Shown in pieces: positions 4,347-5,011 of a stretch of DNA of 64,000 bases. The notes under the pieces were generated by a model. That model saw nothing but the letters and a program-made list of their open reading frames with translations, was not told the DNA's origin and did not search any database. Location of the stretch: contig NMRA01000156.1 of NCBI GenBank assembly GCA_002633005.1, positions 646,488-710,487 of the forward strand, written 5' to 3'. This stretch comes from Phoronis australis (lineage: Eukaryota > Animalia > Phoronida). The first letter of the stretch is position 1. Each line of letters opens with the position of its first letter. The translations under genes and the position numbers were made by a program.

Positions 4347-4500
4347 CTGTGTTGGTGTCGTAGAGAATGCGCGAAGTGATGATGCGACCGCAGTCGGAGA
4401 ACAGCTCTTCCAACTCCTGTTGGGTCATGTTTTTGGGCAGACCACAGATGTAGAGGTTGGCGCCTTTGATTGACTCGCAACTAGGACGAGCCAGAGACAC
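4347..4500 (-). CDS. elav: ELAV exon copy b (downstream): RRM1-RRM2 linker plus N-terminal half of RRM2 (RNP2 LYICGL); mutually exclusive
   Basis: [51 protein letters not shown](G). Acceptor TTCCCCGCAG with a pyrimidine tract, donor CAG|GTAGGG. 154 nt, phase 0 to phase 1. Confidence 0.95.
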
Positions 4501-4857
4501 CTGCGGGGAACAGAACAACGGGAGCGGTGATAGAGAGGCACAGACACACTGACAGACGGATGGGTAGACAGGTGCAAATGCACGCTAGCTACCTCTAGTG
4601 GCACCGTCGCCGTCGTCGTCGTCTTTGGTGATGGCCTCGCCTGGGAGTGAGTGGGGACGGGGTCAACGGGAAACGGACACGTGCTGTTGCTGTCAATGAG
4701 TGAACACACACACACACACACAGACACACCCGCACACACATGCGCGCGAACGAACGGGTGGGAAGGGTCACGTGCGAATGCGCACCCGCCCGTGTCACGG
4801 GGAGTGACTGACCCTCGGTCGCCGCTGACGCACGCATTAACACAAAGGGCTACACAC

Positions 4858-5011
4858 CTGTTATCTGGTCATACAGTATGCGGGAGGAAATGATCGTGCC
4901 GTACTGGCCGAACACGCTCTCCAGATCCAACTGGGTAAATGTTTTCGGCAGACCGCAGACATAGACATTGGCCCCCTTAATGCCCTCGCAGCTGGGTCGG
5001 GCCTGCGACAC
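4858..5011 (-). CDS. elav: ELAV exon copy a (upstream): paralogous linker plus RRM2 N-half (RNP2 VYVCGL); mutually exclusive
   Basis: VSQARPSCEGIKGANVYVCGLPKTFTQLDLESVFGQYGTIISSRILYDQIT(G). Acceptor CACAG, donor CAG|GTGTGT. 154 nt, phase 0 to phase 1, no stops or indels, 34/51 aa identical to copy b. Confidence 0.9.

Follow-up and report, generated by a model that had tools for sequence, protein, structure and literature searches.

Tandem duplication of an internal exon, followed by use of the copies one at a time, is a known but rare class of splicing event: the available part of the human catalogue of tandem exon duplication-derived substitutions counts 236 of them (PMC8373072), and the list includes the RNA-binding proteins U2AF1 and RBFOX1/2 (PMC8373072). 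Here we describe a pair of this kind in a 64-kb stretch of the genome of Phoronis australis (the whole stretch being referred to as the window), in a gene of the ELAV/Hu family, which has a central part in RNA regulation in neurons and serves as a standard marker of neural cells in work on spiralian development. In Aplysia, ELAV stabilises memory-related mRNA, according to the accessible part of the Aplysia ELAV preprint. The exon pair of the window is real, expressed, ancient and apparently undescribed in print.

A first-pass annotation, made from the letters of the window alone, had proposed the pair and knew of no described case. No published description of an ELAV exon pair was found in our literature search, supplementary mollusc splicing catalogues being a place where the event could be listed. 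ELAVL has no occurrence in the supplement of the human list (PMC8373072), consistent with the annotation, which had expected the exon to be single in vertebrates; in the parts available, the string 'splic' does not occur in the Aplysia preprint, and neither this text nor a squid cell-type paper describes the pair. What the annotation missed is that the pair is widespread in molluscs, where the isoforms are already automatic RefSeq models, without comment. The surprise is limited, since events of this kind are familiar and RefSeq already contains the isoforms.

Structure and either-or splicing of the exon pair

The RRM1–linker–RRM2 part of the window gene matches HuD with an E value of 2e-22, versus 4e-13 for Sxl; the segment encoded by the duplicated exon is nearest to HuD, HuR and HuC, then to Sex-lethal, and every named database match is ELAV-like. 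The exons concerned are the following:

8326..8429, minus strand: constant upstream exon, from RRM1 RNP1 to KTIK, joined to a or b in reads
4858..5011, minus strand: exon a, the upstream one of the two alternative 154-nt copies, Leu-28 type
4501..4857, minus strand: intron between the copies, 357 nt, GC-rich, containing a (GT)n run
4347..4500, minus strand: exon b, the downstream one of the two alternative 154-nt copies, Gln-28 type
641..875, minus strand: constant downstream exon, with RRM2 RNP1, helix 2 and the start of the hinge, receiving a or b

Exons a and b have AG/GT flanks, are entered in phase 0 and left in phase 1, and encode the same 51-residue segment, which in exon a covers the last strand of RRM1, the linker, and strand β1, helix 1 and strand β2 of RRM2. 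The copies are identical at 34/51 residues and 101/154 nucleotides, with 17 residue differences, and the E value between them (4e-20) indicates that the similarity is not due to chance. Recomputation confirmed the annotation here, i.e. two intact 154-nt exons in the same phase, 357 nt apart. A tblastn search with both peptides found no third copy in the 64-kb window. Of the 34 common residues, 21 are encoded by different codons, and identity at codon positions 1, 2 and 3 is 38, 41 and 21 (of 51 each). The nonsynonymous divergence (dN, NG86) is 0.277 and the synonymous divergence (dS) 2.31, a ratio that is only rough because dS is saturated. Together with retention in molluscs (see below), these values support purifying selection on both copies and an old duplication, as had been proposed. 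The reading frame allows only one copy at a time: with a joined to b, the 7th codon of b (4481–4483) is a stop, and with both left out, so is the 6th codon of the 641–875 exon, two predictions that were likewise verified.

The use of the copies was assessed with about 18–19% of the reads from each of three raw RNA runs (X1, X2 and X3), joints being listed only at three or more reads per run. All four predicted joints appeared as CT..AC on the plus strand, hence on the expected strand: 8326>5011, into a (11, 4 and 9 reads in X1, X2 and X3); 4858>875, out of a (2, 2 and 5); 8326>4500, into b (21, 12 and 4); and 4347>875, out of b (19, 17 and 10). Altogether, 33 joint reads were obtained for a and 83 for b. 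Against these 116 canonical reads, neither an a>b nor a skip-both joint reached the threshold of three reads per run, and decay may hide such products; a separate read mapping on 4200–5160 gave no joint internal to that stretch. Loose read ends at all four exon borders matched the same two constant exons with an agreement of 0.98–1.0. Exons a and b are spliced mutually exclusively in this animal, as the annotation had predicted. Since both exons splice to the same two neighbours, they belong to one locus and do not result from the mis-assembly of paralogous genes, in accordance with the annotation. An assembly artefact or a dead duplicate is scarcely credible, given that both copies splice to these neighbours in three RNA runs, that dS is saturated with the frame intact and that the same arrangement is found in many molluscs. 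Note that a further RNA contig set, X4, covered just 703–861 and a repeat.

Some features of the reads call for caution. Read counts are small and mates are not independent. Exon a accounts for 24/61 entry joints versus 9/55 exit joints (p 0.007), a deficit that may reflect retention, decay or coverage bias. Loose ends at exon a number 13 at the exit and 25 at the entry, and its donor, GTGTGT at 4858, looks weak. The share of a in X1, X2 and X3 is 0.25, 0.17 and 0.50 (chi-square p 0.011, with the same reservation on independence), a difference that may reflect choice by tissue or stage. Three exonic variants are present in the reads, at 4444, 862 and 655, all of them synonymous, in keeping with purifying selection. 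The variant at 4444, in exon b, is carried by 27/33 reads in X1 and 11/13 in X2, and that at 862, in the downstream exon, by 12/29 and 14/30; should both sites be heterozygous in the animals, one allele may include b more often than the other, and pooling would account for the figures as well.

How might exclusivity be enforced? Several known devices found no counterpart in the sequence. The best RNA pairing around b was equalled by 36/200 and 66/200 shuffles; a 21-nt inverted repeat flanking b (4325–4345 with 4596–4616) did no better than shuffles; and the region folds less stably than 20/20 shuffles (z +2.16), which argues against competing pairings and a stable RNA structure. Steric hindrance through a distant branch point was rejected because the nearest AG lies just 50 nt before the b acceptor in the 357-nt intron, with no long AG-free zone. 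Incompatibility with U12-type sites was also discarded, both donors being GT without the U12-type consensus. The introns flanking a and b display no in-register similarity (13/60 and 16/60). Two short elements lie close to the copies:

5050..5076, minus strand: (TTTG)n U-rich run just upstream of the a acceptor, repeat family D2, candidate splicing element
4293..4315, minus strand: short element after exon b, recurring after exon a at 4625–4647, repeat families D3/D4

The (TTTG)n run before a and the (GT)n run between the copies are candidate splicing elements, and the element shared by 4293–4315 and 4625–4647 is possibly a duplication remnant or a common splicing element; no convincing pairing partner for 4293–4315 was found in the region around the copies. 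The GC content is 55–64% over 4100–5100, which comprises both exons and the near introns, versus about 39% window-wide, and suggests constrained regulatory sequence. The simplest remaining model is that splicing regulators would select the copy, the both and neither transcripts being removed by nonsense-mediated decay (NMD). According to the standard NMD rule, stops well upstream of later exon junctions trigger decay, and NMD is invoked here because the stops of both forms lie well upstream of later junctions.

Distribution and age of the pair

Exon a and, in a second round, a full-length gastropod protein served as database queries, cluster members being listed for 25 proteins; species-group counts refer to groups with at least two proteins holding the segment, among the matches listed. 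In mollusc ELAV, it is precisely this segment that isoforms exchange. Pairs of isoforms that match in all the rest of the protein occur in at least 13/23 mollusc species groups among the matches listed (Liolophura, Patella, two Haliotis groups, Gigantopelta, Physella, Biomphalaria, Mizuhopecten, Magallana, Mercenaria, Ruditapes and two Octopus groups), so that four classes, represented by a chiton, gastropods, bivalves and octopuses, display a swap within one gene. Examples are Gigantopelta aegis XP_041359055/056, Liolophura sinensis XP_064606223/224, Octopus bimaculoides X4/X5, Patella vulgata X1/X2 and Magallana angulata X1/X2. In three further groups, the two types come with flanks that agree over 30 and 60 residues (Pomacea, Octopus vulgaris, and Tegillarca with an unnamed protein). 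These RefSeq pairs thus involve the same family, the same 51-residue segment and two types, and one Mya arenaria gene model contains both copies in tandem, in the order observed in the window. The mollusc pairs are less diverged, with 6–13 differences in the listed pairs versus 17 in the window.

Other pairs were left out of the count or found not to be equivalent. The Babylonia and Bradybaena pairs were excluded because their flanks differ and they lie on different contigs, pointing to likely paralogues; each species has two ELAV loci on different contigs (P0028/P0052 and P0034/P0035, respectively). Bradybaena has both types in these likely paralogues, with the b exon in one locus and the a exon in the other, possibly a switch split between paralogues or else a modeling choice. 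Horseshoe-crab variants do not form an equivalent pair, since their flanks differ too, and no either-or pair was found in the 14 arthropod groups with at least two proteins among the matches listed.

Outside molluscs, both types are present across annelid species, and Malacoceros ELAV1 (b type) falls in a 90% cluster with unnamed a-type proteins whose flanks differ at 1/30 and 0/60 residues. No same-species annelid a/b pair appeared among the matches listed. Some observations weigh against a single early duplication: among the matches listed, only one type was present in 5/23 mollusc groups, in the 15 isoforms of the nemertean Lineus, and in two Owenia (both a type), three Platynereis-cluster and two Dimorphilus-cluster proteins. 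Single-type groups are no proof of loss because the counts cover only the matches listed. Note that Lineus and several annelid proteins (P0209–P0212, P0083, P0304, P0066) carry short insertions directly after this exon, which resemble insect mini-exons at junctions J4/J5.

If one duplication lies behind the window and mollusc pairs, then the copies should be of the same two kinds. We built a and b profiles from 12 mollusc pairs, whose labels were assigned from residue 28; leave-one-out tests separated mollusc a from b in 12/12. Window a scored +12.2 bits and window b -13.5 bits, and +6.6 and -9.1 bits without the label-defining column 28. The conserved contrast resides in position 28 (Leu in a; Gln, His, Arg or Pro in b), which differs in 12/12 mollusc pairs, and in positions 19, 39 and 49. 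Several motifs that the first-pass annotation put forward (SQARP, VYVCGL and GQYGT) turn out to be peculiar to the window lineage rather than part of this contrast. In a tree of the segment (41 rows, 51 columns), all 15 a rows fall together on one side (92/78; recovered in 94% of 200 bootstrap trees), and the single exons of arthropods and vertebrates, to which exon b is closer than exon a, sit on the b side. Hence, one duplication is likely.

Three points weigh against this conclusion. The score of window a drops to +1.1 bits when columns 28 and 49 are both removed (window b, -6.7 bits); part of the a/b clustering arises by construction, because the labels were set from residue 28; and the approximately unbiased (AU) test does not reject a tree in which the two window copies group with each other (p-AU 0.279), so that one origin is no more than likely. 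The rival account would be that the exon was duplicated separately in this lineage and in molluscs, the Leu-28 copy arising twice or by gene conversion. Besides the unrejected tree, Cys-8 and Cys-19 are common to both window copies, Leu-28 also occurs in four proteins of halictid bees that have only one exon type, and the available part of PMC8373072 documents that the same exon of ACOX1 was duplicated repeatedly. We nevertheless regard separate duplications as quite unlikely, in view of the copy order shared with Mya, the match of the types at positions 28, 29, 39 and 49, and the occurrence of both types among annelids.

In a tree of the ELAV proteins, the window sequence is long-branched and of lophotrochozoan type, and groups with that of the bryozoan Watersipora (93/87, with a long-branch warning), with which it shares six rare residues, versus at most two with any other row. 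Constrained trees uniting the window with molluscs (p-AU 0.008) or bivalves (0.007) were rejected, these constraints also forcing groups absent from the free tree, and those uniting it with gastropods (0.075) or nemerteans (0.090) were not. The mollusc classes split in the Cambrian, and the either-or switch is likely more than 500 million years old. Retention from chitons to octopuses and in this animal implies two distinct selected proteins.

Consequences of the swap for the protein

We aligned the segment to HuR such that position n corresponds to HuR residue 92+n, with residue names from PMC13635762, and defined 15 contact positions as those within 4.5 Å of RNA in HuR (PMC13635762). An AlphaFold model of the ELAV protein P0005 (mean predicted local distance difference test score 59.7, about 80 in the RRM cores) was used for secondary structure only. 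None of the 17 window differences falls at a contact position, and 5/112 mollusc a/b differences do. Ten of the 17 lie in positions 24–39, i.e. in the loop before RRM2 helix 1, the helix itself and the loop after it. Position 28, the best separator of a and b across species, aligns with HuR Lys120 and lies two residues from the equivalent of Thr118. In the sections of the sources at hand, Lys120 is described as a SUMOylated residue of helix 1 that faces away from the RNA and can be mutated without a change in binding (PMC11025316), and Thr118 as phosphorylated (PMC12586015). The link to Lys120 modification is positional only, because neither copy has a lysine at position 28. From this alignment, the swap probably alters the outer, non-RNA face of RRM2 rather than the sequence bound.

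The annotation had claimed that the copies form different RNA-binding modules. This does not fit the lack of differences at the 15 contacts and the location of the best separator opposite the RNA face; a different RNA specificity is doubtful because no difference occurs at RNA contacts and 10/17 cluster around helix 1. Yet the opposite case can be made, namely that the isoforms differ mainly in RNA affinity or specificity, via the linker and the loops beside the RNA cleft. The identity of contact positions is expected, because they are conserved in all ELAVs. The exon includes the linker that drives RRM1–RRM2 closure, and in simulation Asn134 makes an RNA hydrogen bond and Gln141 also touches RNA there (PMC13635762, available part). 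Position 42 (Asn134) is Ser/Thr in the window copies, and positions 8 (Ser100, a contact), 39 and 49 (Gln141) differ in 4, 11 and 12 of the 12 mollusc pairs, position 39 being basic in 11/12 mollusc b copies. Because positions 42 and 49 differ, some effect on RNA affinity may exist. As a main difference between the isoforms, however, it seems rather unlikely to us, given the contact counts and given that, in the part of PMC11025316 available, changing HuR Lys120 did not alter nucleic-acid binding.

The copies might also be near-equivalent, and kept for cell-type-specific splicing or for setting the ELAV dose via unproductive splicing. The early stops of the both-or-neither products, the exit deficit of a and the U-rich run before a are compatible with such a role. 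It is made very unlikely by the presence of Leu-28 in 12/12 mollusc a copies and 0/12 b copies, which points to copy-specific constraint on the protein (with the labels resting on residue 28).

Altogether, we consider it fairly probable that a single early-lophotrochozoan duplication produced either-or ELAV exons, which probably tune the outer face of RRM2 in a tissue-dependent manner. Either-or splicing of the tandem copies yields two ELAV proteins of equal length, with 17/51 residues of the segment differing between them. Copy b would have kept the ancestral character, whereas in copy a the first part of RRM2 helix 1 would have acquired a hydrophobic Leu, beside the sites equivalent to HuR Thr118 and Lys120. 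The isoforms would therefore be distinguished less by the RNA sequence bound than by their partners, their modification or the dynamics of their domains. For the back face of RRM2, the pair amounts to an experiment of nature with two alleles. A bolder version is put forward tentatively, as possible and on balance doubtful: a single duplication, Cambrian or older, would have created a built-in two-way switch of the RRM1–linker–RRM2 clamp, kept in molluscs, annelids and probably bryozoans, with a neuron-type-specific Leu-helix isoform having its own partners or modification. If so, splicing would do in lophotrochozoan ELAV what gene duplication did in vertebrates and flies, and the switch would have been invisible to users of elav as a pan-neuronal marker and to Aplysia memory studies. 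Probes, antibodies and gene-level RNA-seq do not separate the two ELAV forms.

Gene context and comparison with described systems

One more constant exon of the gene is recognizable upstream:

21404..21698, minus strand: constant exon, N-terminal tail and first half of RRM1

The frame stays open when 8326–8429 is joined to this exon, and the consensus of loose read ends at 8432 matches its end. At the other extremity, the 3' part of the gene extends past the window start, with reads running on into a further exon (loose ends at 639). A short ATG-led frame at 27852–27890 on the minus strand, with a GT donor in phase 0 compatible with the acceptor at 21698, is possibly an upstream coding exon of the ELAV gene. 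In the intron upstream of a, a repeat element (5432–5545) draws reads from other loci on both strands, and an 18-nt unit forms a tandem array of about 6–7 copies at about 9375–9490. Between 22000 and 64000, the list of open reading frames holds no other long frame recognizable as a gene; this list was not complemented by a family search.

Diversification of ELAV by splicing has been described in insects. As far as the available part of PMC8553928 goes, the single ELAV gene of the honey bee, elavl2, is likewise diversified by splicing in RRM2 and the hinge; its variants are insertions, micro-exons and skipping events, with no duplicated exon described and no occurrence of 'mutually' in that text. 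Similarly, the survey by Samson (2008), which includes no lophotrochozoan, reports mini-exons and shifted splice sites and, in the portion accessible, no duplicated exon (PMC2529313). The unit duplicated in the window appears to be the exon between junctions J3 (phase 0) and J5 (phase 1), matched by phase and position, which according to the same portion is conserved from insects to humans (PMC2529313). With the tandem duplicated exon class, as presented in the available parts of PMC8373072 and PMC9741552, the pair shares homologous internal exons of equal length that are spliced in singly, are ancient and evolve under purifying selection. Unlike the events of the human list, the ELAV swap covers the RRM1–RRM2 linker together with half an RRM, and it appears limited to lophotrochozoans.
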